A stretch of DNA of 64,000 nucleotides from Planctomycetota bacterium (GTDB lineage Bacteria > Planctomycetota > B15-G4): contig JAJDEQ010000102.1 of the NCBI GenBank assembly GCA_029259695.1, forward strand, positions 174,162-238,161. Direction: 5' to 3'. Positions 25,013 to 43,328 of the stretch are shown one piece after another. Both the position numbers and the translations under genes were made by a program. The notes under the pieces were generated by a model. The model ran no database searches, was not told where the DNA came from, and saw nothing but the letters and a program-made list of their open reading frames with translations. Position 1 is the first letter of the stretch. Every line of letters starts with the position of its first letter.

Positions 25013-28000
25013 GTGTCCCGCCGGCACGGGCCGGCACGTCGTGGTGAGAGCAGAGTGCAGCGTCTCGGGCTTTTCTTCTCCGGGCTGGCCATCCTCATGG
25101 CCGGTCTGTTCCTGACGGGGGAGAGCTTCCTCCCGGGACAGCTCTTCGTCCCGCTGACGCCCGACGACTTCCCGGCGTGGCAGGCAGGGCGGGATCCGGA
25201 CTCGCTCCAGGCCCATCCCCATCCCAACTGGACCATGTCCGACGTGTTCCACTTGTTGGTGCCGGGGCTGGCCGTGACCCGCGCCGCCGTGGAGCGCCAG
25301 GAACTCCCCCTGTGGGATCCGTCCCAGGCCCTGGGCGTGCCGCACCTGCACCAGGTGCACTACAGCGTGCTCTACCCGCCCGCGTGGATCCCGTTGTTCA
25401 TGGGACTCAAGGGGCTCGGCGTGCTCGCGCTGGTCCATCTGCTCGTGGCCGGGTGGGGCATGCTCGCCTATCTGCGCGCCATCGACCGCACGATACTCGC
25501 GGCCTTGGCCGGCGCCTTCTGCTTCGCGTTCTCCGCGTGGATCACGGCGCGCCTGCACTCGTTCCCCGTCGTGGGCGCCGCCGTGTGGCTGCCGTGGGTC
25601 TTGTGGGGGCTCGAGCGCGCCAGTCAGCTCGGTGGTCTGAGGCACCGCGCCCTGGCGGCCGCCGCCCTGGCACTCTCCTTCCTGGCGGGTTTCCCGCAGA
25701 TCTCGATCTGGGTGCTGGTGACGGCCACCGTGGTCGAACTCATGCGCTGGCTCGTCTCGCTGCGCACGCCCGGCGCCTTCGGGCGACTGGTGGCGAACGG
25801 CGCGACTCTGGGCCTGGGGTTGGTGCTGGCGCTGCCCCAGATCCTGCCCACCGTCGAGTACATGCGCACCGAGTCGCTGCGCGCCGAGCAGACCCACGAG
25901 GCGATCGTGGCCGATGCGCTCGAGTTGCCCCTGCTCTGGCACCTGTTCACACCGGATCGTTACGCCTCGGTCGATACGGTCGGCTTCCACCCGCTGGCCT
26001 TGCTGCACGGCATCGAACAGGCCAAGGCACCGGCGGCGCTCAACCGCGCCGAAGTGTCCATGAGCGTGGGCGTCATGGGGGGCTTGTTGGCGTTGTTGGC
26101 GCTGCTCTTCGGACGCACCTGGCGCACGATCACGTTCGCGTTGCTGGGCGTCGGTGCGCTCACCTTGCTGGCCTGGCCCGAGGCCCTGCGCCGGGTGTTG
26201 CCGTTCGTGCCCTGGCTCGAGTTCGGCAGCCCCAAGCGCATGCTGCTGGTGTCCACCTTCGCCATGTCGGTCCTGGCCGCGGGCGGCGTGGACCTTGCCA
26301 AGGGATACAAGTTGCGCGTGACCTGCACCGCATGGGGGCTCGCGGTGGCTTGCACGGTGCTGGCCATCTACGCGCGTCTGACCGTGCCCACGGTGAGCGA
26401 GGGTTGGGAGATCGAGGACTGGGCCCGCAGCCTGGCGCTGAGGCTGGGCGATGGGTCGATGTCCCTGGAGGACGTCTTCGCCTGGGTGCCGCGCAAGAAC
26501 TTCGAGCTGGCCTCGGCGGCGGCCCAGCACTCGGCGCACATCGCCCTGGCCGTGGCGGTCTTCGCGATCCTCTACTTCGCGCCCCGCCGGCACACGTCAA
26601 TCCAGGGCTGGCGTACGTGGGCACAGCAGGCGCCGGTGTTGTTGGCCGTCGTGCTCGCGGCCGAACTGCTGTCGACGGCGCTGCCGCTGCTGCGCCCGTC
26701 GTCTTCGCTGCCCGTCTCGTCCACGCCCGACAGCTTGCAGCTCGACGTGCCGGAGCTGGCCAAGGAGGCGCGCGCGCTCGACGTCGCCGGCGAGCCGCCG
26801 TCTCGCGTGGCACGCCTCGGCAACGAACCCCCGTACCTGCGTCCGAACTTCACCTCGTTGTTCGGTCTGCACGACGTCCAGGCCTACGCGCCGATGGTGC
26901 CGCGCCGCACCGCGGAGCTGTTCGACGCCGTGGCTCCGGGGGCCGCGATCTCAGGCTCGCACCTGGGTGGTTTCACCGACGCGACCCAGCTCGACCTGCC
27001 CGCCGTGGACATGCTGGGCATCGACGTGGTGCTCACCGACCACGCCGAGGGCGTGCCCGGTTGGGCGGACATGGGTTACGAAGAGCTGGCCGTGCTGGAC
27101 CCCGTGCGGGTGTTGCGCAACACCGAGGCGCTGCCCCGGGCGTGGGCCGTGCCGATGCACGGTGTGGTGCCGGCACCGTTCGCCAAGGCCCGTCTCGAGA
27201 TCCTGGCGGAGCGCGACTTCGATCCGCGCCGCGAGGTGTTGCTCGACCTCGAACAGGCTCCGCTGCCCACCGACGCGGAGTGGTCCCGGTTGCGCCGCGG
27301 CAAGACCGGCATGATCGAGTCGCGCAAGGTGCTCGTGCCCGTCGCGCCGCCGCCGGCGCCCGCCGCGCCGGCTGACGAGTCGGCCGCCGACGACGAGAGC
27401 GACACCGACGAGAATGAGACCGACGACGGGTCGGGCGCGGACGGGGGCGACGGCGCCGAGCAGGCGGCCGGCACGGACGCTGAGGCGGCGGACGCTGCCT
27501 CGGGCGAGGACCCCGAGGGCGACACGCAGACCCCCGAGCCCGTGGCGGGGGAGGACGACCCCGAGGCCGCCGCCGGCGGCACGAAGGGGGACGGCGCGCC
27601 GGACGCTCCCGAGGGAGCCGGTGCTGCCGTGGCGCCACCCCCCGAGCCCGAGATGGTCCTGCGCACGAACTGGCCGGCCGGACCCCGCAGCGTCACCATC
27701 GAGGCCTATCGCCCGGGCTGGATTCAGCTGCGGGTGGGGCCCGGGTCCCCCTCGGTGCTCGTCTTCAGCGAGACCTGGCACCCGGGGTGGCGCGCGGAGA
27801 TGGCGTCGGAGCAGCTTCCGGTGTGGGTCGCCAATCACGCCCTGATCGGTGTGCCCGTCTGGCCTCGGGGCGAGGTCGTGGTGAAGCTGCGCTTCGATCC
27901 GCCGCTGGTGCGCTACGGGCTGATGGGCGGAGGAGTCGCGTGGCTCGTGTGCCTGGTCATGCTCGTGCTCCCCGCGCGCCGCGGGCGTGGGCGGAGCACG

Positions 28001-28039
28001 GCCCGCAAGAAGCAGGTCAAGGCCCGCTCGGACGGTTAG
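25013..28039 (+). CDS. YfhO-like polytopic membrane protein (putative glycosyltransferase) with an acidic low-complexity insert
   Basis: More than 10 TM helices in the N-terminal 550 aa, with the family-like text LPLWDPSQALGVPHLHQVHYSVLYPP. The GTG start at 25013 is uncertain. Confidence 0.7.
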   Translation: MSRRHGPARRGESRVQRLGLFFSGLAILMAGLFLTGESFLPGQLFVPLTPDDFPAWQAGRDPDSLQAHPHPNWTMSDVFHLLVPGLAVTRAAVERQELPLWDPSQALGVPHLHQVHYSVLYPPAWIPLFMGLKGLGVLALVHLLVAGWGMLAYLRAIDRTILAALAGAFCFAFSAWITARLHSFPVVGAAVWLPWVLWGLERASQLGGLRHRALAAAALALSFLAGFPQISIWVLVTATVVELMRWLVSLRTPGAFGRLVANGATLGLGLVLALPQILPTVEYMRTESLRAEQTHEAIVADALELPLLWHLFTPDRYASVDTVGFHPLALLHGIEQAKAPAALNRAEVSMSVGVMGGLLALLALLFGRTWRTITFALLGVGALTLLAWPEALRRVLPFVPWLEFGSPKRMLLVSTFAMSVLAAGGVDLAKGYKLRVTCTAWGLAVACTVLAIYARLTVPTVSEGWEIEDWARSLALRLGDGSMSLEDVFAWVPRKNFELASAAAQHSAHIALAVAVFAILYFAPRRHTSIQGWRTWAQQAPVLLAVVLAAELLSTALPLLRPSSSLPVSSTPDSLQLDVPELAKEARALDVAGEPPSRVARLGNEPPYLRPNFTSLFGLHDVQAYAPMVPRRTAELFDAVAPGAAISGSHLGGFTDATQLDLPAVDMLGIDVVLTDHAEGVPGWADMGYEELAVLDPVRVLRNTEALPRAWAVPMHGVVPAPFAKARLEILAERDFDPRREVLLDLEQAPLPTDAEWSRLRRGKTGMIESRKVLVPVAPPPAPAAPADESAADDESDTDENETDDGSGADGGDGAEQAAGTDAEAADAASGEDPEGDTQTPEPVAGEDDPEAAAGGTKGDGAPDAPEGAGAAVAPPPEPEMVLRTNWPAGPRSVTIEAYRPGWIQLRVGPGSPSVLVFSETWHPGWRAEMASEQLPVWVANHALIGVPVWPRGEVVVKLRFDPPLVRYGLMGGGVAWLVCLVMLVLPARRGRGRSTARKKQVKARSDG

Positions 28040-28049
28040 TCTCTGCAGC

Positions 28050-30707
28050 ATGAGTGCCGACCTCCGAACATCCGCGCAGCGCATGGCTGGGGTGCTGCTG
28101 GCCCTGCTGCCGTGGGTCGGTGCCTGTGGCGATGCCGGCGGGGCGGGCGACACGCGCGTGCCGCAGCCTGACGATCGCGCGACGCTGCGCCTGTGGCGCG
28201 ACCTGGCACCGGTGGAGCACGACGTGCCGAGCTCCTCGAAGGCCGTGGTGCCCCACGAGACGCGCTCGCTCCTGGTCGATCCGTCGGTGTCCTGGCAACG
28301 CATCGTGGCCGGCGACGACGGCATCACCTACGTCCCGGCCGACGTCGACGGATCGCTGCGGTTGCCGGCGGCGGAGGCTCAGCGCGGCGGCTTCGTGACC
28401 AGCGTCCCGGTGCGCGAGGGCGAGGCCCTGGTGGTCCGCCTGCGCGTGCGCGTGGTGGGCGCCGAGGTGGGGCGCAAGGCGATGGTGGCGGCGCTCGTGC
28501 AGCGGCGCGAGCCGTTCGACCCCGGTGAGCGGCTCGACCAGGAAGCCGTGGCGCGCATGTTCGACCCCAGCCGTTTTGCGGTGAGCGCGTTGTCGATCGA
28601 GTTGGATGCGTCCGGTGCTGCGGGCGAGGTGCAGGAGTTGCGGCACGCGTTCCTGGCCGACGTGGGCTCCACCGAGCTGGCGCTGTACCTGCTCGCATCC
28701 GAGGCGGGCGCGGGACTGGCCACCGTGGTGGACGAGGTCGTGCTCGAGCGCGTGGGCACGACGGCGCACCTGCTGAACGGCGGCGATGTCCCACGCCTCA
28801 CCTGGCTCGACGAGGCGCAGGGCTCCACGCCCTCGGCCGTGCGCGTGCGTATGGACCGCGACGAGCGGGAGGGGCTGCTGGCCCTGGCGCCGAGCCGTTT
28901 CGCGTGGGATCTGCCGGCGTGCGATGTGCCCCGGCGGCTGGACCTGGCGATCGGTGTGCGCCCGCGTGACGCCACGCTCGAGGGGAGCATCCGTTACCGG
29001 GTCAGCGTGGGCGGAGACGAACTGGCCGTGGACATGTCGCATGCCCCGTCATCGCCGGCCGAGCCGGCCTGGACCGATCTGCGCTTCACGCTGCCGGCGT
29101 CTCCCGACGGGCCGCAGCGGCTCGAGTTGTCGACCATGGGGCAGGGCAGCGACCCGCCCCTGTGCGTGTTCGGGCATCCCACCGTGCGTCGCGCTCGCAC
29201 GGGTGCGCCGCCCAACGTCGTCCTGATCAGCCTCGACACGCTGCGCCCCGACCGGTTGGGCAGCTACGGCGGTGTGGCGCGGCGCGTGGCGGCCGACGGC
29301 GAGGGGCAGGCGGTCGAGATCAGTCGCCACCTCGACGCGCTCGCCGCCGACGGCCTGCGCTTCACCAACGCCTACTCGACCACGAGCTACACGCTGCCCA
29401 GCCACGCGTCGATGCTCACCGGCCAGTACCCGGCCTTTCACGGAGCGGTCGACATCACCGATCGTCTGAGCACCGCCCGCTCGCCGTTCCTGGCGCGCAT
29501 GCTCTCCGACGTGGGCTACGCCACGGCGGCCTTCACCGGCGGCGGCTACGTCTCCACCGACTACGGCTTCGGCGAGGGCTTCGATCGCTACAGCCTCAAC
29601 GACCCGGTCTGGGCCCTGGGGACCGTGCGCGGGCGGCAACTGATCGGCACGATCGGCTGGCAGCGTTCGCCGGTGAACGAGGAGTTGCTCGCGCGCTACG
29701 ACACTCGGGCCGTCGCCGGGTGGTTGCAGGAGCAGCAGCCGGGCATGCCCTTCTTCGCCTTCCTGCACACGTACATCGTGCACAACTACGCGCCCAGCAC
29801 CGCGTGGATGGAACGCCTGGGCCTGTGGCAGCCGGGGCAGCTCGGCCGGCCTTTCGATCACCGTCTGCGCAGCGCCTACAACGCGCGCGACGGCGATGCC
29901 GACGCAGCCGGTACCGACGGGCCGGAACGGGAGGCCCTGCGCGCCCGGGTGTACGACGCGTACATGCCGTACTACGACGCGACGATCGGCATGGCGGACG
30001 ACTTCGTGGGTTCGGTGCTGGCGGCGTTGCGCCGGGCGGGCGTGGCCGACAACACGATCGTGATCGTCACCTCGGACCACGGCGAGGAGTTCGGCGAGCA
30101 CGGTTTCTTCGGCCACGGCGAGTCGCTCTACGATGCCAACACGCGGGTGCCGTTCATCGCCTTCGTGCCCGGCATGGAACCGGCGGTGATCGACGATCCG
30201 GTGAGCCTGGTGGACATCGCCCCCTGGGTCCTGCGCCTGGTGGGACTGGAGCCCGCGCCGAGCACCATCGCCGACCCGTTGGGACCCACGCGGGACTCGC
30301 CGCCGAAGCGCGACACCGTCGTGATGGAACTGGACACGCACCTGCGCCGGCTCAGCGCCGTGCGTGAAGGCGACCTCAAGCTGCACGTGCGCTTCGACCC
30401 GGACGACGGCGAGCAGCAACGGGCGTTCTACGACCTCGTGGCCGACGCCGGTGAACAACGGGATCTGCTGGCCCCCGGCGGGCCCCTCGCCAGCGGCGAC
30501 GACGACGGCAAGGCGCTGCGGGCGGCGGCCGAGCGGATCCGCACACGCCTGCAGCAGTTCCACAAGATCGCCGCGGCGGCCGGACCCGGCGAGGGCAGCG
30601 AGCGCACCCTGCACGACCTCGACCCGGACATGCTGATCCAGCTCATGCAGCTGGGGTACATCTCCGCCGAGGATGTGTCCGAAGCCATGCGCGGTCGCGA
30701 TGGCTAG
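28050..30707 (+). CDS. Lipoprotein with an N-terminal domain of about 390 aa of unknown function and a C-terminal sulfatase-like (alkaline-phosphatase superfamily) hydrolase/transferase domain
   Basis: Lipobox in MSADLRTSAQRMAGVLLALLPWVGAC. Also PNVVLISLDTLRPDRLGSYGG, YSTTSYTLPSHASMLTG (Thr in place of the C/S-x-P-x-R formylglycine motif) and IVTSDHGEEFGEHG. Confidence 0.85.
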   Translation: MSADLRTSAQRMAGVLLALLPWVGACGDAGGAGDTRVPQPDDRATLRLWRDLAPVEHDVPSSSKAVVPHETRSLLVDPSVSWQRIVAGDDGITYVPADVDGSLRLPAAEAQRGGFVTSVPVREGEALVVRLRVRVVGAEVGRKAMVAALVQRREPFDPGERLDQEAVARMFDPSRFAVSALSIELDASGAAGEVQELRHAFLADVGSTELALYLLASEAGAGLATVVDEVVLERVGTTAHLLNGGDVPRLTWLDEAQGSTPSAVRVRMDRDEREGLLALAPSRFAWDLPACDVPRRLDLAIGVRPRDATLEGSIRYRVSVGGDELAVDMSHAPSSPAEPAWTDLRFTLPASPDGPQRLELSTMGQGSDPPLCVFGHPTVRRARTGAPPNVVLISLDTLRPDRLGSYGGVARRVAADGEGQAVEISRHLDALAADGLRFTNAYSTTSYTLPSHASMLTGQYPAFHGAVDITDRLSTARSPFLARMLSDVGYATAAFTGGGYVSTDYGFGEGFDRYSLNDPVWALGTVRGRQLIGTIGWQRSPVNEELLARYDTRAVAGWLQEQQPGMPFFAFLHTYIVHNYAPSTAWMERLGLWQPGQLGRPFDHRLRSAYNARDGDADAAGTDGPEREALRARVYDAYMPYYDATIGMADDFVGSVLAALRRAGVADNTIVIVTSDHGEEFGEHGFFGHGESLYDANTRVPFIAFVPGMEPAVIDDPVSLVDIAPWVLRLVGLEPAPSTIADPLGPTRDSPPKRDTVVMELDTHLRRLSAVREGDLKLHVRFDPDDGEQQRAFYDLVADAGEQRDLLAPGGPLASGDDDGKALRAAAERIRTRLQQFHKIAAAAGPGEGSERTLHDLDPDMLIQLMQLGYISAEDVSEAMRGRDG

Positions 30708-32375: not shown

Positions 32376-32403
32376 GCCGGCTCAGCCCCGCACGCCGCGG
32401 AGG

Positions 32404-32507
32404 CCCGGCAACCCGCTGAGCCCGGCGAGCAGCGGGGGCCCGGCAACCCGCAGAGCCCGGCAAGCCGCAGGGTCTGGCAAGCCGCAGGGTCTGGCAAGCC
32501 GCCGAGT
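32404..32507. repeat. Six tandem units of 17-18 nt, consensus C(C/T)GGCAA(C/G)CCGC(A/T)G(A/G)G(T)
   Basis: Units begin at 32404, 32421 (degenerate), 32439, 32456, 32474 and 32491. Intergenic, between the FAD gene stop and the giant gene start. Confidence 0.8.
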
Positions 32508-32646
32508 CCCGTCGGGCGCCGGGCGCGACGCGGGTGGCGGAAAAAACCGTTAGGGATCGTAGGGTTGGTCAGTATCCCTCGAGCGTCCCCCGGACCGCGT
32601 CCCGCGCGACGCCGGGTCGAACCGTCTCTTCGTCAGGAATCAACCG

Positions 32647-35600
32647 ATGCCGCGCTGCTCGTTCTCGCGTCTTGTCGTCATGTTCACGTGGATCGTCGCG
32701 TTCGGCGGTGTGTCGTCGGTGCCCGCCCTGGGCCAGGGCACCGCGGGGCCGTACGGCTTCGAGGAACAGTTCGCGTTCGCCGTCGACCGGGAGGCCGTGC
32801 TCGACCAGCTCGTGCCCGGTTCGCGCGAGGACTACTACTACCGCTGCCTGTTGCACCAGCACGCGGGTGAGTTCGACCAGGTGGAGCGGCTGCTGAAGTC
32901 GTGGATCCAGAGCCACGGCCGCGACAGTCGGGTGCAGCGCATCCAGGCCCGCCAGGCGCTGCTGACCTTCGACGGGGATCCGGCGGCGACCTACGACTTC
33001 CTGCGGCGTGAGCTGGGGCTGTCGTTCAACCACCGGCGGGAAGTTCCCGGGCAGATGCCCGACCTGCCCACCCGACTCGACCCCACGCTGATCTCGCGCG
33101 AGACGCTGACCCGTCGCGCGCTCGCGAACAGCAAGACGCTGCGCGGCTTCAACGACTCGGCGCTGCCCTTCCTGCTGGCCAGCGATCTCGACGGTGATCG
33201 CCTGCGCGGGGTGCTCGAACGCCTGGAGCGGCCGGACCACCCGAACCTGCCGGCGCTGATCGTGCGCGACCTCGACCATCGTCAGAGCCGCGGCTTCGGC
33301 TCGATCCCGATCCACCGCAAGCTGCTGGCCGCGCAGCTCGAGGAGTGCCTGCGCCTGCGCCCGTCGCTGCTCGACGACCGGGTCTTCGTGGAGACGCTGC
33401 TGCAACGCCTGCAGCCGGATGCCGACGTGGACTGGCAACGCAACGGGGCGGCGCGACAGGCCTACCTGGACCGGCTCGAGAGCTTCACCCGCCGCCTGCC
33501 CCCCGTGCACGATTCGCTGACCGCGCACGTGCTGCACCACCGGTTGCTGTTCGACCGCTCCCGCGGAGTTCACGACAAGGAGCGCTTCATGACCTACCTG
33601 CGACTGCCCCGGCCGTCGCAACACGTGCTGCCCGGATACCGGCAGCAGCGCTCACGGACGACCGGCGTGGTCGACCTGTCCGTTCGTTTTCCCACCGGCC
33701 TGGACCCGGTGTTGAACGACGAGGATCTCGTGCGCGACTACCTGACGCACTTCTTCCGGCAGGAAGAGTCGTGGCAGCCGTACGCGGAGTTCGTGCGCGA
33801 CGACTACCTGCGCCGCGTGTTCGCCGAGACCAAGATCCTCTACGGCCTGGGTGAGGACTCCGACGCGGCCGAGCGCTGGTACGCCATGCTCGATGATCCG
33901 GCCTACTACGAGCGCCTCAAGGACCGGGTCGAGATCGACTTCGCACCGACGCAGCAGCGCTTCTTCGGCGCGGACGAAGAGGTCGTGCTGGACCTCGACG
34001 TGAAGCACGTCGACACGCTGCTGGTGAAAGTGTTCGAGATCAACACCTTCAACTTCCACGCCGAGCGCGAGCAGGACGTCGATGCGTCGATCGAGCTCGA
34101 CGGGCTGGTGGCCAGCGAAGAGACGGTGCACACCTACGACGAGAGCCCCCTGCGGCGCGTGCGGCGCAGCTTCTCGTTCCCGGCGCTGAGTCAACCGGGG
34201 ACCTACGTGGTCGAGCTGATCGGCAACGGGATGTCGAGCCGGGCCGTGATCCGCAAGGGCGCGCTGCAGGTCGTCGAACGGGTGGGCGCAGCCGGGCACG
34301 TGTGCCGGGTGCTCGACGAGGCCGGGCAGCACCTGCGCGACGCGTCGATCTGGATGGCGGGCCGCCAGTACGAGCCCGACGAACAGGGTGAGATCGCGAT
34401 CCCGTTCTCGACCGAGCCGGGCACGCGCAAGCTCGTGCTGCGCCACGGCGAGTTGTCGGCGCTGGCCGAGTTCCAGCACCAGGCGGAGACCTACGAACTC
34501 TTCGCCGGCATCTCCATCGACCGGGAGTCGCTGATCGCCGACGCCACGGCCACGATCCTGGTGCGGCCGACGCTGCAGGTGAACGGGCGCGCCGCCAGCC
34601 TGGCGTTGCTCGAGGACGTGGTGCTCACGATCACGTCGCGTGATCGCGACGGCGTCAGCTCGACGCTCGAGGTGCGCGATCCGGAGCTGGGCCCGGGTGG
34701 TGAGTTGCTGCACACGATCGACGTGCCGCCGGGGCTTGCGTCGCTCACGGTGGACCTCGCCGGCCGGGTGGCCAACCTGAGCACGGGGCAGGACGAACGG
34801 CTGCACGCGCCGCGACGCGTCTTCCCGGTCAACGTCATCGACACCACCGAGCGCACCTGGACCGCGCTGCTGGGCCGCACCGAGGACGGCTACGTGCTCG
34901 ACGTGCTGGGCAAGAACGGAGAGCCCAAGCCCCATCGCGCGCTGGGACTCGAGCTGGATCATCGCGACTTCTCCGACCCCGTGCAGGTCCAGCTCATGAC
35001 CGACGCACGCGGGCGTGTGGACCTCGGCCGCCTGCGGGACATCACCGCCGTGTACACCAAGGCGTTGCCGAGCGAGGTCGATCAGTGGGACCTGGTCACG
35101 TACGCGCGCACCTACCCGCACCGCCTGCACGGCGTGGCGGGCGAGGTGCTGCGCGTCCCGTACCAGGGCGCCGCGACGCGGGTCTCGCGCGACGTGGCCT
35201 CCCTGCTCGAGTTGCGCGGGGGCCAGTTCGCCCTGGACCGCTTCGGTCATCTCGCCCTGGCGGACGGCTTCCTCGAGCTGCGCGAGCTGCCGCCCGGGGA
35301 CTACGACCTGTGGCTGCCGGAAGCCGAGCGTTCGATCGAGGTGCGGGTCGGCGTCGGGCAGCGCGACGGCCGATGGATCCTGGGCGACGCCCGGCGATTG
35401 CCCGTGGATCAGCCCCCGCCGTTGCACGTGACGGACGTCGGCGTGACCGGTGACGCGCTCGAGATCCGACTGGCCAACGCCGGTGCGAGGACCCGGGTGC
35501 ACGTCGTGGCCACGCGCTTCGTGGCGGCCTTCGATCCGTTCGCCATGCTCGCGACGCCCGCCGATCGCGGCCGGCCCGTGGAGTCCATGCTGCATCCCGC

Positions 35601-38600
35601 GTCCAGCTACCACGCCGGCCGGGAGATCGGCGACGAGTACCGCTACATCCTCGATCGCCGCTATGCCGCGAAGTTCCCCGGCAACATGCTGCGCCGGCCG
35701 GGGCTGCTGCTGAACCCGTGGGCCGTGGACGAGAGCGATACGGCCATCGGTGTCGGCGGTGGCGCGGGGGGCAGCTTCGGCAAGGTGGGCAGGCGAGCGG
35801 GCTCGCCCCTGCGCCGTGCCGACGATCGCTCGTCGGGCATCGCTCCCGGGCCGGGACTGTTCGCCAACCTGGACTTCCTCGCCGAACCGTCGCGCCAGCT
35901 CGCCAACCTCGAGCCGGATGCCGACGGCCTGGTGCGCATCCCGTTGGCCGACCTGGGCGCCGGGCACGAGCTGCACATCGTCGCCGTGGACGGGGTCAGC
36001 ACGGTCTACGCCACCCACGTCCTGCCCGAGCCCGAGCTGCAGCGGCGGGATCGGCGGCTGCTGCTGGGCCTCGATCCGTCCCGGCACTACGCCGAGCAGC
36101 GGCGCATCGAGTTCGTCGACACGGACGCATCCACGGTCGTGGAGGACGTGGCCACCTCGGAGGTGGAGCTGTACGACTCGTTGGCCGCGGTCCACCGCTT
36201 GTTCAGCACGCTGAGCGGTGACGCCGACCTGGCGCGCTTCGAGTTCGTGCTGCGCTGGCCCGAGCTGGAGCGGGACGAGCGGCTCGCGCTGTACGCGGAG
36301 TACGCCTGCCACGAGCTGCACCTGTTCCTGCACCAGAAGGACCGGGCGTTCTTCGACGAGGTGGTGCGGCCCTACCTCGCCAACAAGATGGACAAGACGT
36401 TCCTCGATCACTGGCTGCTCGAGGACGACCTGTCGGCCTACCTCGAACCCTGGGCCTTCGGGCGGCTGAACGTGGTCGAACGGATCCTGCTGGGACGTCG
36501 CCTCGACGGGCAGGCCGCCGGCGTGGCGCGCCAGCTCGGCGAGCTGGTGGACCTCGTGCCGCCCGACCCGGAGCGCGAGCGCTCCCTGTTCCGCACCGCG
36601 CTCATGGGGCAGGCGCTCGACACGGGGCCGAGCCTGGGCAAGAAGGTCAAGGCCGCCGGCGAGTCCCGGCGCGACGAGATGCTCGATCAGCTCGGCTATC
36701 TGGGTGAGTCGGTCGAGGAGGCCGCGCCACCCGCCGCGCGGGTGGCCGGTGCGTTGGCGGTGCAGGCGGACGAGCTCGTGTACGAGACGGAGAACGACAG
36801 CGACTTCGCCCGGCGTGCGAACCAACGGGCGTTGTACCGCGCACCTGAACGCACCCGCGAGTACGCCGAGCACAACTACTGGCACCTGCGCATCCGTCAA
36901 CAGGGCCCGGAGCTCGTGCGCCCCAACGCCTTCTGGCTGGACTACGCGCGCGCCCCGAACGGGGTGCCCTTCGTGTCGTCCCACGTGGGCGCCGCCGCGG
37001 GCAGCTTCGCCGAGATGATGCTGGCCCTGGCCGTGCTGGACCTGCCCTTCGAGGCGGGAGTGCACGAGACGGCCATCGAGGACGGCCGGCTCGAGCTCCG
37101 TGCCGCGGGCCCGCTGTTGCTCGTGCGCCGGGAGCTCACCGAAGCCGCCCCCGCCGAAGACGAGGCCGCGGTGCTCCTGGGGCAGAACCTGTTCCGCCTC
37201 GACGATCGGTACCGCTTCGAGGGCAACCAGCGCTTCGACAAGTACGTGAGCGACGAGTTCCTGGTCGACGTGCCCTACGGCTGCCAGGTCGTGGTGACCA
37301 ATCCCACGTCGTCGCCGCGGGACCTGGAGCTGCTGCTGCAGATCCCGCGGGGGGCCATGCCGGTGCTCGGCGGCTTCACGACGCGCGGGGTCGACGTGCG
37401 TCTCGACGCGTTCTCGACGACCACCTTCGAGTACCACTTCTACTTCCCCGGGCCCGGCGACTACGCGCACTACCCGGCCCACGTGTCGCGGGACGGCCGG
37501 TCGGTGGCCTTCACCGAGCCGGCGACGCTCAGCGTGGTGCGCGAGCCCACCAAGGTGGACACGACGTCCTGGGCACATGTCTCCCAGAACGGCACGCTCG
37601 ACGAGGTCCTGGCCTATCTGGACGGAGAGAACATTCGCCGCGTGGACCTGGAGCGCATCGCCTGGCGCATGGGCGAGCGCGGCGCCTTCGAGCGCGTGCT
37701 GGACCACCTGCGCGAGCGGCACATGCCGTCCATGACGCTGTGGTCGTACGGCCTGCGCCACGGCGATGTCCGCGCGACGCAGGAGTACCTGCAGCACCGG
37801 GACGACCTCGTCGCGCGTTGCGGCCCGGTGCTGCAGTCGCCCCTGCTGTCCCTCGATCCGGTGCAGCGCCGCACCTACGAGCACCTCGAGTACGAGCCCC
37901 TGTTCAACGGGCGTGCGCACCGCTTCAGTGCGCAGCGGGGCCTGCTCAACGCCGGGCTGCTGCGACAGTACGTCAGCTTCCTCGACGTGCTGGTGCACCG
38001 CCCCAGCCTGCGCGCGGCGGACTGGATGGAGGTCACCTACTACCTGCTGCTCCAGGACCGCATCGCCGAGGCGCTGGCAGCCTTCGCCCGCGTGCAGCCC
38101 GAAGAGCTGTCGATGCAGTTGCAATACGACTACGCCCGGGCCTACCTCGACTTCTTCAGCGAGGAGCGGGCGCTGGCCCGGCCCATCGCCGAGGCTCACG
38201 CCGACCACCCGGTCCCGCGCTGGCAGGCACGCTTCCGGGATGTGATCGCCCATCTCGACGAGGCGCAGGGGGGCGCGGTGGCCGGGGCCGGCGACGACGA
38301 CCTCGCGGCGCAGCAGACGGCCCTGGCCGCGTCCGAACCGTCGCTGGAGCTGGACGTCGAGGCGCGCCGCATCACGTTGCGACACGACAACCTGGACGAG
38401 GTCCGGCTGAGCTTCTACGCGATGGACGTGGAGTTCCTGTTCTCGACCAGTCCCTTCGTGCAGCAGGGCGCGGGCTCGTTCGCCTACGTCAAGCCCAACC
38501 GCAGCGACGTGATCGCGCTCGACGCCGACGCGGGGTCCACCACGATCGATCTGCCGGCCGAGTTCGGCAGCGCCAACGTGCTGGTCGAGGCCCGCGCGGC

Positions 38601-38910
38601 GGGCGTGGTGCGCAGGCAGGCTTCCTACGCCAACAGCCTGGTGGTCGCGGTGTTCGAGAACTACGGCCAGCTCAAGGTCACGGACACCGAGACCGGAGCG
38701 CCGCTGGCACGCAGCTACGTGAAGGTCTTCGCGCGCACGTCCGGCGGGTCGACCCGCTTCCACAAGGACGGCTACACCGACCTGCGCGGCCGCTTCGACT
38801 ACGCCTCGCTCTCGGGCAGCGGCGCCACCGACGTGGAGCGCTTCGCCGTGCTGGTGCTCAGCGAGACCCACGGGGCCGTGATCCGCGAGCTGGCGCCGCC
38901 CACCCGCTGA
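32647..38910 (+). CDS. Very large (2087 aa) secreted protein of unknown function
   Basis: ATG at 32647 with signal peptide MPRCSFSRLVVMFTWIVAFGGVSSVPALG. GC3-rich throughout. The N-terminal third reads as helical and the middle contains several beta-sandwich-like segments. The C-terminal module is CarboxypepD_reg-like (YVKVFARTSGGSTRFHKDGYTDLRGRFDY). I recognise no catalytic motif. Confidence 0.85.
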   Translation: MPRCSFSRLVVMFTWIVAFGGVSSVPALGQGTAGPYGFEEQFAFAVDREAVLDQLVPGSREDYYYRCLLHQHAGEFDQVERLLKSWIQSHGRDSRVQRIQARQALLTFDGDPAATYDFLRRELGLSFNHRREVPGQMPDLPTRLDPTLISRETLTRRALANSKTLRGFNDSALPFLLASDLDGDRLRGVLERLERPDHPNLPALIVRDLDHRQSRGFGSIPIHRKLLAAQLEECLRLRPSLLDDRVFVETLLQRLQPDADVDWQRNGAARQAYLDRLESFTRRLPPVHDSLTAHVLHHRLLFDRSRGVHDKERFMTYLRLPRPSQHVLPGYRQQRSRTTGVVDLSVRFPTGLDPVLNDEDLVRDYLTHFFRQEESWQPYAEFVRDDYLRRVFAETKILYGLGEDSDAAERWYAMLDDPAYYERLKDRVEIDFAPTQQRFFGADEEVVLDLDVKHVDTLLVKVFEINTFNFHAEREQDVDASIELDGLVASEETVHTYDESPLRRVRRSFSFPALSQPGTYVVELIGNGMSSRAVIRKGALQVVERVGAAGHVCRVLDEAGQHLRDASIWMAGRQYEPDEQGEIAIPFSTEPGTRKLVLRHGELSALAEFQHQAETYELFAGISIDRESLIADATATILVRPTLQVNGRAASLALLEDVVLTITSRDRDGVSSTLEVRDPELGPGGELLHTIDVPPGLASLTVDLAGRVANLSTGQDERLHAPRRVFPVNVIDTTERTWTALLGRTEDGYVLDVLGKNGEPKPHRALGLELDHRDFSDPVQVQLMTDARGRVDLGRLRDITAVYTKALPSEVDQWDLVTYARTYPHRLHGVAGEVLRVPYQGAATRVSRDVASLLELRGGQFALDRFGHLALADGFLELRELPPGDYDLWLPEAERSIEVRVGVGQRDGRWILGDARRLPVDQPPPLHVTDVGVTGDALEIRLANAGARTRVHVVATRFVAAFDPFAMLATPADRGRPVESMLHPASSYHAGREIGDEYRYILDRRYAAKFPGNMLRRPGLLLNPWAVDESDTAIGVGGGAGGSFGKVGRRAGSPLRRADDRSSGIAPGPGLFANLDFLAEPSRQLANLEPDADGLVRIPLADLGAGHELHIVAVDGVSTVYATHVLPEPELQRRDRRLLLGLDPSRHYAEQRRIEFVDTDASTVVEDVATSEVELYDSLAAVHRLFSTLSGDADLARFEFVLRWPELERDERLALYAEYACHELHLFLHQKDRAFFDEVVRPYLANKMDKTFLDHWLLEDDLSAYLEPWAFGRLNVVERILLGRRLDGQAAGVARQLGELVDLVPPDPERERSLFRTALMGQALDTGPSLGKKVKAAGESRRDEMLDQLGYLGESVEEAAPPAARVAGALAVQADELVYETENDSDFARRANQRALYRAPERTREYAEHNYWHLRIRQQGPELVRPNAFWLDYARAPNGVPFVSSHVGAAAGSFAEMMLALAVLDLPFEAGVHETAIEDGRLELRAAGPLLLVRRELTEAAPAEDEAAVLLGQNLFRLDDRYRFEGNQRFDKYVSDEFLVDVPYGCQVVVTNPTSSPRDLELLLQIPRGAMPVLGGFTTRGVDVRLDAFSTTTFEYHFYFPGPGDYAHYPAHVSRDGRSVAFTEPATLSVVREPTKVDTTSWAHVSQNGTLDEVLAYLDGENIRRVDLERIAWRMGERGAFERVLDHLRERHMPSMTLWSYGLRHGDVRATQEYLQHRDDLVARCGPVLQSPLLSLDPVQRRTYEHLEYEPLFNGRAHRFSAQRGLLNAGLLRQYVSFLDVLVHRPSLRAADWMEVTYYLLLQDRIAEALAAFARVQPEELSMQLQYDYARAYLDFFSEERALARPIAEAHADHPVPRWQARFRDVIAHLDEAQGGAVAGAGDDDLAAQQTALAASEPSLELDVEARRITLRHDNLDEVRLSFYAMDVEFLFSTSPFVQQGAGSFAYVKPNRSDVIALDADAGSTTIDLPAEFGSANVLVEARAAGVVRRQASYANSLVVAVFENYGQLKVTDTETGAPLARSYVKVFARTSGGSTRFHKDGYTDLRGRFDYASLSGSGATDVERFAVLVLSETHGAVIRELAPPTR

Positions 38911-38955
38911 GCTGCGATTCAGCGACGGCTCTCGAGGGCGGGCTCGTCCCCGGGC

Positions 38956-39042
38956 GGTGCGCACGTGCGCGGCGGCTCCCGTGGGCCGCTCGCCCCCCGG
39001 CGCTGCGCATGTGCACGGCGGCCCTCGCGGGCCGCTCGCCCC
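38956..39042. repeat. Two imperfect direct repeats of about 41 nt (period 46 nt), each containing a short palindrome
   Basis: Unit 1 is 38956-38996 and unit 2 is 39002-39042, with 35 of 41 positions identical by hand alignment. Unit 1 contains the perfect palindrome GCGCACGTGCGC. They lie between convergent stops at 38910 and 39053. Confidence 0.7.
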
Positions 39043-39052
39043 GGCCCCCGCG

Positions 39053-41542
39053 CTAGTCTTCCGACAGGAAGTCGAGCAGCGCGCGGATGTAGTGCTGGTT
39101 CTCCAGGCGCGTGTCGAGCTGGTGCAGGGTGTCGTGCGCGTAGAACGCCTCGAGCTGCTCGGCGCCCTTCTCGAGGAAGCAGTGGTCGCGGGTCTGTCGC
39201 CAGGCCTCCGCTTGTGCCAGCAGGATCGAGTGGAAGTCGCTGGAGGGGAAGGCCGTGATCTCCTGCAGCGTCACCGCGTAGCTCAACGCGATGCGCCGGT
39301 CGCCGGGGTCGGGGAACAGCGGGTGCAGCTCGTTGGCGGTCCAGAAGGCCAGGTCCTGCAGGCGCTTGGAGGCGATCACCGACAGCGGGTCGTCCGAGCC
39401 GAGGTAGTCGGCGCAGAGGTAGTAGGCCATGGGGCCCAGGGTGGCGCTGATCCAACCCCGGGTCTGGAAGTTCTCGCCCGGCGGCTTCTCGCTGTTGTTC
39501 TGGGTCGAGTTGACGAAGTAGCCCCGCGTGCCCATACCCGGCGGTCCGTCCCAGCCGAAGCCCGACGAGTCGGAGTTCACGTCGATGGTCGGGAACAGGA
39601 TGTACTCGAGGCGCTGGCGCAGCGAGGCGTCGATGGGGGCGCGCAGTTCGGGGCGGTCGCGCACGAAGCGTCCCACGACGGTGTGCGCACGGAGCGTCTG
39701 GTACATCGATCGCTCCTGGGCCGTGATGCTGAGTCCGGGCAGGATCTCGGCCTCGTCGAGCAGCGCCTCGCGCAAGCGTTCATCACCCGTGAGGTGGTAC
39801 GCGAGCGCGATCCCCTCGCGGTAGCGGTGCTCGAGGTCCGCCTTGAACGCCATCGAGTGCTCGGACTCGTCGTTGATCGCACCGGGGTCGTCGTCGTGGT
39901 GGAAATCGTCCGAGCGCAGGATCTGCCACTCGCTCTTGTAGAGCGCGAGGTCCAGGGCCTGCAGGTAGGGGCCGCCGCGGCCGAAACGCAGGTAGACGTC
40001 GGCCAGGTCCTTCTGGATGACCGCGTGGTTGTTGAAGCCGCCGGTCTGGCCGGCGGGCAGGAAGCGCATCACGCTCATGTCGTCGTTGGGCACGATGACC
40101 TGGTGGTCGAGGCCGAGCAGGGTGTAGACCGCCTCCTGTTCGTCCGGCGTGACCAGGTCGAAGGGGAACACGCCCGCGGCGTCGTAGTCGAGGTACTCGC
40201 CGTAGCGGCCGGCGACGGCGGTGTCGGTGCGGCGCGCCACCTCGATCGGCGGGTCGGGCTCTGCCCCGGACGGTCCGTGGAACGAGAACGTCGCCGTGCG
40301 GCTCTCGTGCTGGCGCCACACGAACGTGTAGCCGAACGGATTGCGATGGGTGAACAGGCCGGCGACCATGTCGCCCTTGCCGTTGGCCTCCAGCGCCGCG
40401 GGCCAGAAGTACGGCATGTGACGGATGACGATGGTGGCGCCGCCGATGCTGCCGCTCAGGTCGACGTACCCGTGTCGCGGCCAGGCGTCCCGGTCCCCTT
40501 CGAACAGGGTCTCGCCGTTGAGCTGCAGCCGGAAACCTTCGTCGGCCAGGGTCTGGCCGTCGAGCTTGGGGATGTGGGGCTTGTAGTTCGGGCCGTCGCC
40601 CAGCACACCGCGGGTGTCACTGGAGGCGAACGCCTGGTGGATGTGTGCGCACGAGCCGGGGGGCAGGGGCATGGACGCCTCTTCCACCGGATGGGCGAAG
40701 CGCGCCACGGGGTCGTCGCCGTGATCGATGTCGACGTGCAGCTCCAGGCCGCCGATGCGCGTGTGTTGCGGGCGTCCGATGCCGGCGTTGCGCACGGTGA
40801 GCGTGACGTCCAGGTCGCGGGACTCGGCCGTGCCCTCGATGCGGCAGGTGAAGTCCACCACCTCGTTGCCGCTCGCGTCGGTCATCACGCCGTCGGCGCG
40901 CAGCATGGCCCGGGCCGGGCCGTTGTGTTCCACGCTCACCTGCGTGGGCCCGCGCACGAGGGTCTGGCCGTTGGCCGTGCGCCCGATCAGTCCCCGGCTC
41001 TTGCCGTCGCGCACGAGCAGGATGCCGTCGACGACGACCCGGTCGAACAGGTTGAAGTCCTGCTTGCTGACCCGCGCGCGCAGCGGTCCCGTGTCGATCA
41101 GGAAGTGCGAGCCCTCGTCGCTGATGATCTCGCGCTGATCGGACAGGCCCGGCCCCGTGGCCAGGTTGACGACGACGGGTGGGGCGTTGCGTCCCACGTC
41201 CGCGAGCACGTCGACCAGGACCCAGCGCACCGAGCCGTCGGGCCAGGTGTCGAGCGCGCGGAACTGCCACACGTCCGCGTTCTGCAGTCCCAGCCGCGGG
41301 CGTCCGTCGAAGAAGGTGATCTCGCCCTGGGCGAACGGGAGCCCGAACGTCGCGACGCGCGGGCGCAGTTCGGGGAGCTGGATGTCCGACGGTGCGATGG
41401 CCTCGACCAGGGCCGTGGCGATGGTCTCGTTGCCGACCGTCGCGCCCGGTGCGATCGTCACCTTGCTGCTGCCGCCACCGCCGCCGCACGCCGGCAGGAC
41501 GCACGCCAACAGGAGGCTGGGCACGAAGCGAAGGGTGAGCAT
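39053..41542 (-). CDS. Large lipoprotein (829 aa) of unknown function
   Basis: ATG at 41542 gives MLTLRFVPSLLLACVLPACGGGGGSS (lipobox LPAC). GC3-rich frame. The track start at 41584 adds 14 unsupported residues. Confidence 0.8.
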   Translation of the reverse strand: MLTLRFVPSLLLACVLPACGGGGGSSKVTIAPGATVGNETIATALVEAIAPSDIQLPELRPRVATFGLPFAQGEITFFDGRPRLGLQNADVWQFRALDTWPDGSVRWVLVDVLADVGRNAPPVVVNLATGPGLSDQREIISDEGSHFLIDTGPLRARVSKQDFNLFDRVVVDGILLVRDGKSRGLIGRTANGQTLVRGPTQVSVEHNGPARAMLRADGVMTDASGNEVVDFTCRIEGTAESRDLDVTLTVRNAGIGRPQHTRIGGLELHVDIDHGDDPVARFAHPVEEASMPLPPGSCAHIHQAFASSDTRGVLGDGPNYKPHIPKLDGQTLADEGFRLQLNGETLFEGDRDAWPRHGYVDLSGSIGGATIVIRHMPYFWPAALEANGKGDMVAGLFTHRNPFGYTFVWRQHESRTATFSFHGPSGAEPDPPIEVARRTDTAVAGRYGEYLDYDAAGVFPFDLVTPDEQEAVYTLLGLDHQVIVPNDDMSVMRFLPAGQTGGFNNHAVIQKDLADVYLRFGRGGPYLQALDLALYKSEWQILRSDDFHHDDDPGAINDESEHSMAFKADLEHRYREGIALAYHLTGDERLREALLDEAEILPGLSITAQERSMYQTLRAHTVVGRFVRDRPELRAPIDASLRQRLEYILFPTIDVNSDSSGFGWDGPPGMGTRGYFVNSTQNNSEKPPGENFQTRGWISATLGPMAYYLCADYLGSDDPLSVIASKRLQDLAFWTANELHPLFPDPGDRRIALSYAVTLQEITAFPSSDFHSILLAQAEAWRQTRDHCFLEKGAEQLEAFYAHDTLHQLDTRLENQHYIRALLDFLSED

Positions 41543-41732
41543 GGTGCGGGGTCCGGGGCTGCGGGATTCACCACGCAGAGTCACGAATTCCCGGGGTTCA
41601 AACGAGGCCGGCGGCCCCCCTCGGCGGCCGCAACGGAGCGAGGTGGTCGCGGAGATCCACGCGGCTTCCCGAAGCTCGCCTCAGCGGTGGATTGTGGTTG
41701 AAATCCGTGCGCCGGGCGACTGCGAAACGGGG

Positions 41733-42440
41733 TTACTCGTGCAACAGGCCTTCGTCGAGCACGAAGTCCAGGACGCGTCGGGCCATGACCGCGTGGCCCG
41801 CGGCATTGGGGTGCAGGCCGTCCCGTTGCATGCGGCCGGGGACCTGCAGGACGTCCTCGAGCAGGTCGCGCAACAGCGGGATGTCGAACTCCTCGGCCAC
41901 GTGTTCGTAGGCCGCTTCGAACTCCCGCCGATAGGTGGCCGGGATGGGGGCCGGCAGACGCAGCCCCACCAGTCCCACGCGCACGCCGGCGTGCTGCAGG
42001 CGCTGCACGATCGTGCTCAGGTTGCGGGCCATGATGTTCACCGACTGGCCGCGCAGTCCGTCGTTGCCACCGAGTGCGACCAGTGCCACGTCGGCGTGGC
42101 GCCGCATGGACTCACCGAGACGCGCCAACGCATCGTGGGTGGTCGCTCCCGAGACACCGGCGTTGATGCTCTGCGCCTCCCAACCGCGGGTGTCGAGGGC
42201 CGCGTTCACCTGCGCGGGGTAGGCCTCGGTACGGGACACGCCGTAGCCGGCCGTGAGGCTGTCACCGATGAACAGCAAGGTGACCGGTCCGGGGGCGGGG
42301 GACGCGGCCGCCCCGGGGCTGCACGCACCGGGCGCGCCGGTGACCAACGCGAGCACGAGGGCGCGCAGTGCGACCGGCAGGCTGGAGGCACCCCGACCGC
42401 GGCGCGGACGGTGCCGACTTCGATGGACCTGGGCTGACAT
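41733..42440 (-). CDS. SGNH/GDSL hydrolase (TesA-like arylesterase/lysophospholipase)
   Basis: Block I FIGDSLTAGYG, block III LGGNDGL, and block V DGLHPN. ATG at 42440 with a signal-like N-terminus. Confidence 0.85.
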   Translation of the reverse strand: MSAQVHRSRHRPRRGRGASSLPVALRALVLALVTGAPGACSPGAAASPAPGPVTLLFIGDSLTAGYGVSRTEAYPAQVNAALDTRGWEAQSINAGVSGATTHDALARLGESMRRHADVALVALGGNDGLRGQSVNIMARNLSTIVQRLQHAGVRVGLVGLRLPAPIPATYRREFEAAYEHVAEEFDIPLLRDLLEDVLQVPGRMQRDGLHPNAAGHAVMARRVLDFVLDEGLLHE

Positions 42441-42527
42441 GGTCACCGGATGTAGCATCGTGCGCGGCCGGCGGCCAGCCGGGAGCCGTCCCAGCCACCA
42501 CCGTCTCCGACGCCATGGCGAGCGCCC

Positions 42528-43328
42528 ATGACCAGCCCGCAACAGGTGACCGACGGAATCGGTCGCACGGTGAGCCTGGACGCACCGCCTGAGCGCATCG
42601 TCTCGCTCGTTCCGTCCACCACCGAGACGCTGGCGGCGTGGGGGCTCGGTGCGCGCGTGGTCGGTCGCACGCGCTACTGCGTTCATCCCCAACCGTGGGT
42701 GCTGTCCGTGGCGGACGTGGGCGGCACGAAGAACCCGAGGGTCGACGCGATCGCCGCGCTCACGCCGGACCTGATCGTGGGCAATCAGGAAGAGAACCGG
42801 CCCGCGCTGTGGCCCGAGCTGGAGCGGGTCTCGACCGTGTACGTGGCCTATCCGCGCACCGTGGACGAGGCGCTGGACGACCTGCGGCGCATGTCCGTGC
42901 TGGTCGGCGCCGCGGACCAGGGCACGGCCTGGGCGCACCGGATCGAGGCCGCGCGGCGTGAGGCGCGAGCTCGAGCGGTGCCGTTCCGCTACGTCTACCT
43001 GATCTGGCGCGAGCCGTGGATGACGATCTCCGACGACACTTTCGTGGCGTCCATGCTGGGCAGCGTGGGCGGGCGCAACGCGTTCGGCGATCGGAGCGAG
43101 CGCTACCCCGCGGTCACGTCGGCCGAGATCGAAGCGGCACAGCCCGAGTGGATCTTCCTCAGCACCGAGCCGTATGCGTTCGAGGCGCGGCACGCGGCCG
43201 AACTGGGCGCCCTCGCGCCCCGCTGCCGCCTGATCGACGGAGAGCTGACGAGCTGGCACGGGGTGCGGATGGCTGCGGCCTTCCCCTACCTGGCCGCACT
43301 CGTGCAGCGGCGCGACGACGACCGCTGA
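42528..43328 (+). CDS. BtuF/TroA-like periplasmic-binding-fold protein (cobalamin-binding or helical-backbone metal receptor family)
   Basis: PERIVSLVPSTTETLAAWGLGARVVGRTRYC and DLIVGNQEEN are typical of this family. No signal peptide as read. Confidence 0.7.
   Translation: MTSPQQVTDGIGRTVSLDAPPERIVSLVPSTTETLAAWGLGARVVGRTRYCVHPQPWVLSVADVGGTKNPRVDAIAALTPDLIVGNQEENRPALWPELERVSTVYVAYPRTVDEALDDLRRMSVLVGAADQGTAWAHRIEAARREARARAVPFRYVYLIWREPWMTISDDTFVASMLGSVGGRNAFGDRSERYPAVTSAEIEAAQPEWIFLSTEPYAFEARHAAELGALAPRCRLIDGELTSWHGVRMAAAFPYLAALVQRRDDDR

Follow-up and report, generated by a model that had tools for sequence, protein, structure and literature searches.

The 2087-residue secreted protein encoded at positions 32647-38910 of the DNA stretch analyzed here (the window: 64,000 nucleotides of a Planctomycetota bacterium, contig JAJDEQ010000102.1, positions 174,162 to 238,161) is, with high confidence, an exported bacterial member of the CAGE family and a candidate subunit of a hollow cage. 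Its gene is real and belongs to a family that has been named and structurally characterized and is functionally unexplained; we describe no new family. CAGE membership, export, and domain architecture are the established parts of this reading. An earlier note, which worked from the letters of the sequence, had assigned the protein to an unknown family. This stands for function, which has no assignment, and falls for the family, as the protein belongs to CAGE and the CAGE architecture has been solved (PMC12485934).

The CAGE family was named and structurally characterized by McCafferty et al. (bioRxiv, September 2025; PMC12485934), using proteins from Tetrahymena cilia (CAGE1-3; I7MLD7, I7M9Z0, I7MGF4) and Dictyostelium (AbpF; XP_635154.1), the AbpF cage being solved at 3.58 Å; the Dictyostelium coordinates are deposited at Zenodo (10.5281/zenodo.17179865). 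The cage is a hollow, D2-symmetric homotetramer of about 1 MDa with a cavity of about 600 nm3. CAGE1 has 15 domains, with no Pfam match and with Ig/macroglobulin-like sandwiches. The order is two N-terminal helical domains, six Ig/macroglobulin-like sandwiches, helical domain 11, beta domain 12, helical domains 13-14, and beta domain 15; domains 4 and 6 are nearest to the macroglobulin domains of alpha-2-macroglobulin (A2M) and complement (PMC12485934). Bacterial homologs number in the thousands, chiefly in Planctomycetota and Verrucomicrobiota, and carry signal peptides, which the eukaryotic members lack; no function has been assigned to the family (PMC12485934). CAGE is one of few megadalton assemblies common to bacteria and eukaryotes whose function is entirely unexplained. 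The bacterial members are exported, stand alone in their genomes, and occur in about one-fifth of the sampled Planctomycetota species. Function should be easier to approach in them than in ciliates or slime moulds. To these, the window adds a compact bacterial member.

Homology to the CAGE family

A database search with the window protein returned more than 2375 homologs; full-length relatives number more than 2300. The best 120 are 1898-2310 amino acids (aa) long and 46-58% identical to it, mostly at 98-100% coverage; the named ones among them are all "hypothetical protein," and none of the 120 carries a Pfam domain. Both sequence and length are kept end to end across phyla, at 35-58% identity. 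The link to CAGE runs through these relatives. We obtained NCBI accessions for ten close matches and checked seven of them against Table S2 of PMC12485934, where all seven (P0004 = MBI4879216.1, P0024, P0036, P0041, P0042, P0057, and P0081; 50-57% identical to the window protein) are present as BLASTP matches of AbpF. Among them, MBI4879216.1 shares 57% identity with the window protein and is given there with E=0, 92% cover, and 29.7% identity to AbpF; the other six have E from 0 to 1e-141, and the seven together span 26-30% identity and 69-97% cover. Table S2 entries from cultured strains, such as Verrucomicrobium sp. BvORR106 and Roseimicrobium sp. ORNL1, were also matched by the window protein. 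Other culturable carriers in the table include Verrucomicrobium spinosum (WP_009963781.1), Desulfonema magnum, and Stieleria spp.

A direct link to eukaryotes came from repeating the database search with a length window that left out most bacterial members. The window protein matched CAOG_06416 of the eukaryote Capsaspora owczarzaki with E=0, 1159 bits, and 33% identity, and this protein is likewise in Table S2 of PMC12485934. Full-length homology to CAGE is therefore transitive via the seven bacterial relatives and direct to the Capsaspora homolog. The Capsaspora protein (P0237) scores higher against the window protein than it does in Table S2 against AbpF (maximum score 479, 28% identity), which hints at either gene transfer between bacteria and this eukaryote or unequal evolutionary rates. 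Two divergent members (P0236 and P0240) carry a ZZ zinc finger and are probably eukaryotic.

The earlier note had proposed a survey of taxonomic distribution. In a set with a single genome for each species, relatives are encoded in at least 594 species. Among the matches listed, these come from Planctomycetota, Verrucomicrobiota, Kiritimatiellia, Lentisphaerota, Hydrogenedentota, Riflebacteria, Myxococcota, and Desulfobacterales. Within its own phylum the gene is patchy (43 of 201 species; 24 of 128 high-quality genomes). It is present in each of the five genomes sampled from the window genome's own family, and some genomes of the phylum have two copies.

Domain databases are nearly silent on the protein. 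The one Pfam match, to CarboxypepD_reg at aa 2010-2057, is sub-threshold (E 0.15, 12.9 bits against a cut-off of 32.3). Searches of NCBIfam with the window protein, and of PDB sequences with the protein and two profiles, gave no match, and no Pfam family recurs across 18 diverse CAGE members. As in the published cages, we are dealing with a single chain in the range of about 1900-2400 aa, here 2087 aa, that has no known Pfam or SCOP domains.

Export, domain architecture, and relation to alpha-2-macroglobulin

The features of the gene and its product are as follows, all on the + strand.

32647..38910, CAGE-family gene, 2087 codons plus stop, an uninterrupted open reading frame (ORF)
32647..32736, Sec (signal peptidase I type) signal peptide, about aa 1-30, read from the sequence
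32758..33924, N-terminal all-helical region, aa 38-426, corresponding to CAGE domains 1-2 (AlphaFold2 N-half model)
33931..35664, about six macroglobulin-like beta-sandwiches, aa 429-1006 (AlphaFold2 N-half, Foldseek)
35674..35859, disordered Gly/Ala-rich loop 1, about aa 1010-1071 (predicted local distance difference test, pLDDT, below 50)
35968..36174, beta-sandwich, aa 1108-1176 (AlphaFold2 C-half)
36181..36690, conserved helical core, aa 1179-1348 (AlphaFold2 C-half, conservation)
36694..36843, hypervariable disordered loop 2, aa 1350-1399 (AlphaFold2 C-half, loop statistics)
36856..37539, mixed segment, aa 1404-1463, then beta-sandwich block, aa 1474-1631 (AlphaFold2 C-half)
37570..38265, two helical domains, aa 1642-1725 and 1769-1873, corresponding to CAGE domains 13-14 (AlphaFold2 C-half)
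38275..38337, short disordered acidic/Ala loop 3, aa 1877-1897 (AlphaFold2 C-half)
38341..38892, C-terminal double beta-sandwich, aa 1899-2082 (AlphaFold2 C-half)

The earlier description of an uninterrupted frame rich in G+C at third codon positions was correct: G+C by codon position is 0.74/0.44/0.93 (93% at the third position) in a window of about 70% G+C. The gene is single-copy in its 6.05-Mb, 233-contig Planctomycetota-like metagenome-assembled genome. A signal peptide, which had been called plausible, is borne out by Sec-type features: the N-terminus reads MPRCSFSRLVVMFTWIVAFGGVSSVPALG and then QG, with a basic n-region, a 14-residue hydrophobic core, and an A-x-G cleavage-type site (A-L-G before Q). 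No Cys follows the hydrophobic core and there is no lipobox, so the protein is not a lipoprotein; the mature form has a mass of about 230.6 kDa and an isoelectric point of 5.4. By a simple heuristic, 114 of 121 full-length homologs have a signal-peptide-like N-terminus, versus 13 of 121 for an internal control window. Conservation among homologs begins right after the signal peptide, at a (I/Y)GFxExFALAxDR motif, and the Capsaspora homolog, which has no signal peptide, begins directly at this motif.

We folded the protein with AlphaFold2 as two halves, each with a 59-sequence alignment from related loci. The N-half (aa 30-1050) reached a pLDDT of 87.1 and a predicted template modeling (pTM) score of 0.80, and the C-half (aa 1051-2087) a pLDDT of 79.7 and a pTM of 0.69. 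The predicted order of helical, six beta-sandwiches, helical, beta, helical, helical, and beta agrees with the 15-domain order of CAGE1, in a comparison of order and type made without superposition, and about half of the chain is helical. The models also bear out the regions sketched in the earlier note: a helical N-terminus (claimed as about 450 aa), beta-sandwich-like segments both before loop 1 and after it (at aa 1108-1176), a conserved-looking helical core, which holds a YACHELHLF motif, and a CarboxypepD_reg-like terminal module, here the prealbumin/CarboxypepD_reg-like last part of the C-terminal double sandwich. The first run of sandwiches closes with a highly conserved IGDEYRYILxRR...PGNML..P.LLLNPW segment, and the beta block at aa 1474-1631 contains YGCQVVVTNPTS and FYFP motifs. 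As the earlier note had also stated, no thioester or catalytic motif can be assigned: searches of the protein for CxEQ, HExxH, Walker A, and GDSL motifs found none, and GxSxG is confined to segments of low confidence and poor conservation, or to their margins.

Conservation is similar throughout the structured modules, with a mean frequency of the commonest residue of 0.45-0.68. It is highest in the C-terminal prealbumin-like domain, which carries the motif FxKDGYTDxxGxFDY. Across 18 sequences, including Capsaspora and the ZZ-finger-bearing members, 100 positions are invariant; these include the C-terminal motif and a charged cluster in the helical core (E1223, D1232, K1247, D1254, N1275, and E1278).

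The disordered loops lie at identical positions in bacterial and eukaryote-like members. By the same measure loops 1 and 2 score 0.30-0.34, and loop 3 is less variable, at 0.50. Loop 1 varies little in length (46-58 aa over aa 1028-1075) and is poorly conserved in sequence. Loop 2, over aa 1349-1400, ranges from 52 to 122 aa in 65 aligned sequences, with the window protein the shortest seen here (52 aa), and over the wider interval aa 1340-1405 it reaches 286 aa in the 18-sequence set. It is an insertion hot spot in the homologs P0203, P0234, P0235, and P0238. Some relatives have acquired inserts there: a PATR repeat scoring 37.6 bits, a TPR scoring 25.3 bits (P0234), and a sub-threshold STN-like segment (P0238); P0235 has a motif that looks similar to the TPR. 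The eukaryote-like members have low-complexity Met/Ala/Pro tracts in loop 2. The "autotransporter-associated" annotation of the Roseimicrobium sp. ORNL1 protein arises because a PATR repeat is inserted there.

The window protein thus resembles Tetrahymena CAGE1-3 and Dictyostelium AbpF in its length of about 2100 aa, its lack of Pfam domains, its helical/beta order, its macroglobulin-like sandwiches, and its loop positions. It is set apart from them by its cleavable Sec signal peptide and its short loop 2.

The macroglobulin-like sandwiches raise the question of whether the protein is instead a divergent member of the A2M/thioester family that inhibits proteases as a monomer in the periplasm, as E. 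coli ECAM/YfhM does. When the models were compared with the PDB (entries to April 2026) by Foldseek, the first 46 matches of the N-half were consecutively A2M/complement family chains (C5, C3, C4, A2ML1, CD109, TEP1, and A2M), with E from 8e-11 to 6e-8 over about 600 aligned columns, and down to E 1e-7 the matches were nearly all C3/C4/C5/A2M/A2ML1/CD109/TEP1. The C-half gave weak matches to C3b, C5, ECAM, and GH2 proteins at TM-scores of about 0.09. Size and signal peptide also resemble those of bacterial A2M. However, global TM-scores to A2M-family structures are 0.10-0.14 with root-mean-square deviations above 19 Å, so that CAGE and A2M have the domain type alone in common and not its arrangement. 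A titin Ig array reaches E 6e-8 as well, and the 400-residue helical N-terminus has no A2M counterpart. The structural check that the earlier note had called for thus yielded the CAGE domain order together with an array of sandwiches that is A2M-like at fold level only, A2M domains being the nearest solved relatives, as in CAGE.

Profile evidence points the same way. On another contig, the genome has a canonical bacterial A2M of 2144 aa (G000:C117; L085:3224-9658) with bMG10, A2M_BRD, A2M, and MG2 domains, which genome scans with PF00207 and PF01835 match, and not the CAGE gene; an acyl-CoA dehydrogenase gene comes after it. No A2M-family Pfam domain was found in the window protein or 17 relatives, and hhalign of the two CAGE half-profiles against this A2M gave probabilities of 0.4% and 0.1%. 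A2M-like membership, which the earlier note had named as a way for its reading to fail, is therefore not what these checks returned. The protein also lacks CxEQ. Some true A2Ms do so too, and this absence alone is not decisive. By profile, hhalign, and arrangement, A2M-family membership is largely refuted, and we consider it very unlikely.

Some likeness to A2M is genuine at the level of form. The CAGE protein and bacterial A2M are both exported, are each about 2100 aa long, and contain many macroglobulin-like beta-sandwiches in a row; the flexible hypervariable loops of CAGE recall the A2M bait region, and human A2M is likewise a hollow tetramer. In contrast to A2M, the CAGE protein has no detectable sequence relationship to that family, no thioester motif, and no recognized thioester or CUB domains; it also has large helical domains, is not a lipoprotein, and has no genomic linkage to or co-occurrence with A2M. 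A tblastn search of the 87 related CAGE loci with the genome's own A2M gave a single weak match. Only one of the examined loci, in a genome of the phylum (G020:C46:143974-152659), has an A2M gene immediately upstream of its CAGE gene, with both genes on one strand.

The signal peptide, the many beta-sandwiches, and the large size would also fit a giant adhesin of the cell surface, or an S-layer-like structural protein, composed of Ig-like domains; we regard this reading as very unlikely too. The protein has no internal sequence repeats (Tandem Repeats Finder gave only three very short, low-scoring matches in the ORF, of 15-29 bases and 2.1-2.5 copies) and no anchor or secretion-system domain in Pfam or NCBIfam, and about half of its chain is helical. 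Its end-to-end conservation is unlike that of fast-evolving adhesins of variable repeat number, its homologs form closed cages inside eukaryotic cells, and the PATR annotation stems from a single repeat in loop 2 of a few relatives.

A candidate bacterial cage and its possible function

By analogy with the solved members of the CAGE family, 230-kDa chains that have crossed the cytoplasmic membrane would come together in fours as a hollow shell with D2 symmetry and a mass of about 0.92 MDa. Arrays of beta-sandwiches and bundles of helices would make up its wall and enclose a cavity of roughly 600 nm3. We consider such a homotetrameric cage probable for the window protein by likeness to CAGE1-3 and AbpF. 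The Sec signal peptide means that the window protein acts outside the cytoplasm, unlike the solved cages. The predicted shell would resemble GroEL-type chaperonins, vaults, and encapsulins in being a megadalton homo-oligomer with a cavity. It would differ from them in having no ATPase, no capsid-like or chaperonin fold, and no adjacent cargo gene, and in being made of four very long chains rather than many small ones.

Several observations weigh against the reading of an exported cage and the roles considered for it. To our knowledge, no bacterial CAGE has been purified or imaged, and the solved cages are all eukaryotic, from the cytosol or cilia. None of the RNA runs holds the CAGE gene, which appears only in DNA runs from biofilm metagenomes. 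The global TM-scores to A2M-family structures are low, as given above. Carriage of A2M is nearly equal in CAGE-positive (31 of 43; 72%) and CAGE-negative (111 of 158; 70%) genomes of the phylum, which indicates that CAGE neither replaces A2M nor depends on it. Finally, the CAGE authors saw no cargo density in their cages (PMC12485934).

What might an exported cage do? One tentative answer, the best of several weak options, is that the shell is an energy-independent, passive periplasmic container that could take up or trap other proteins, as a protease trap or a holdase. The three disordered loops at conserved positions might then serve as gate or bait elements, and such a container could work with no conserved partner genes. 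We favor it because there is no ATP outside the cytoplasm, because the protein has no catalytic or nucleotide-binding motif and its gene no partner genes, and because macroglobulin-like wall domains occur together with flexible loops at fixed positions. However, none of the results points directly to a role as a trap or a chaperone, and a thioester is absent.

A more specific proposal, which we put forward as speculative, takes bacterial CAGE for a periplasmic trap that is energy-independent and that arose either from the macroglobulin fold or in parallel with it. The Gly-rich loop (aa 1010-1071) and the hypervariable loop (aa 1350-1399) would be its bait or gate, and loop 2 would be an evolvable site of display at which different lineages insert targeting modules. 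If this whole proposal were true, CAGE would be a second, thioester-free envelope cage for defence or quality control, common to bacteria and protists. The negative context of the window constrains any hypothesis on function: the gene has no partner in an operon and is not linked to canonical A2M.

Genomic neighborhood

Upstream of the CAGE gene lie genes for a YfhO-like membrane protein, a sulfatase, and a flavin adenine dinucleotide (FAD)-dependent protein. Downstream are a convergent PcRGLX-like lipoprotein, a GDSL esterase, an Nramp transporter, and an ABC transporter. Three of these are of exported carbohydrate-active type.

27987-30707, sulfatase gene, of exported carbohydrate-active type
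39053-41584, PcRGLX-like gene, convergent to the CAGE gene, with the lipobox MLTLRFVPSLLLACVLPAC
41733-43259, GDSL esterase gene, of exported carbohydrate-active type

These neighbors invite the reading that the protein binds or degrades polysaccharides as part of a local glycan cluster with the flanking sulfatase, PcRGLX-like lipoprotein, and GDSL esterase. Exported carbohydrate-active-type enzymes do surround it, and the C-half has weak matches to GH2 beta-galactosidases and an exo-chitosanase (E about 5e-5). However, the GH2 matches are at TM-scores of 0.08-0.10 and the secondary structure of the model has no alpha/beta-barrel-like region, from which we infer that they most likely reflect accessory beta-sandwiches; no glycosidase or carbohydrate-binding module family was found.

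The neighborhood itself is not conserved. An all-against-all BLAST of ORFs from 80 related loci and the window placed no neighbor family in more than 12 of the 81 loci. In a second comparison, tblastn of seven window neighbors against 87 loci, including seven genomes from the closest relatives in the phylum survey, the neighbors were missing save for one FAD gene and one generic ABC match. The PcRGLX-like lipoprotein and the FAD enzyme, which the earlier note had suggested as partners, are near a CAGE gene in none and one of the 87 loci, respectively, the latter in a same-family genome with a different arrangement. The grouping of sulfatase, PcRGLX-like, and GDSL genes is thus not kept beside CAGE genes elsewhere, and a role in a glycan cluster is about as improbable as an adhesin. 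Synteny is common to a small sub-clade only, and the absence of conserved neighbors indicates that the CAGE gene is a stand-alone unit.

Promoter and terminator scans gave nothing above chance, and the gene is flanked by tandem repeats on both sides. An imperfect repeat at 32380-32511, with a period of 17 (or 35) nt and about 7 (or 3.8) copies, sits within the 271 nt that separate the FAD gene stop from the start of CAGE. A 46-nt repeat at 38922-39042 (2.6 copies, 82% match) fills the 142-nt gap between the convergent CAGE and PcRGLX-like genes, where no terminator-like hairpin was called. BLAST of both found no second copy in the genome, so they do not belong to a dispersed repeat family. On the opposite strand, a 1770-aa ORF at 33652-38964 is a shadow of the high-GC CAGE frame; conservation of the + frame is the sole reason why 79 of 81 loci have antisense ORFs of this kind.

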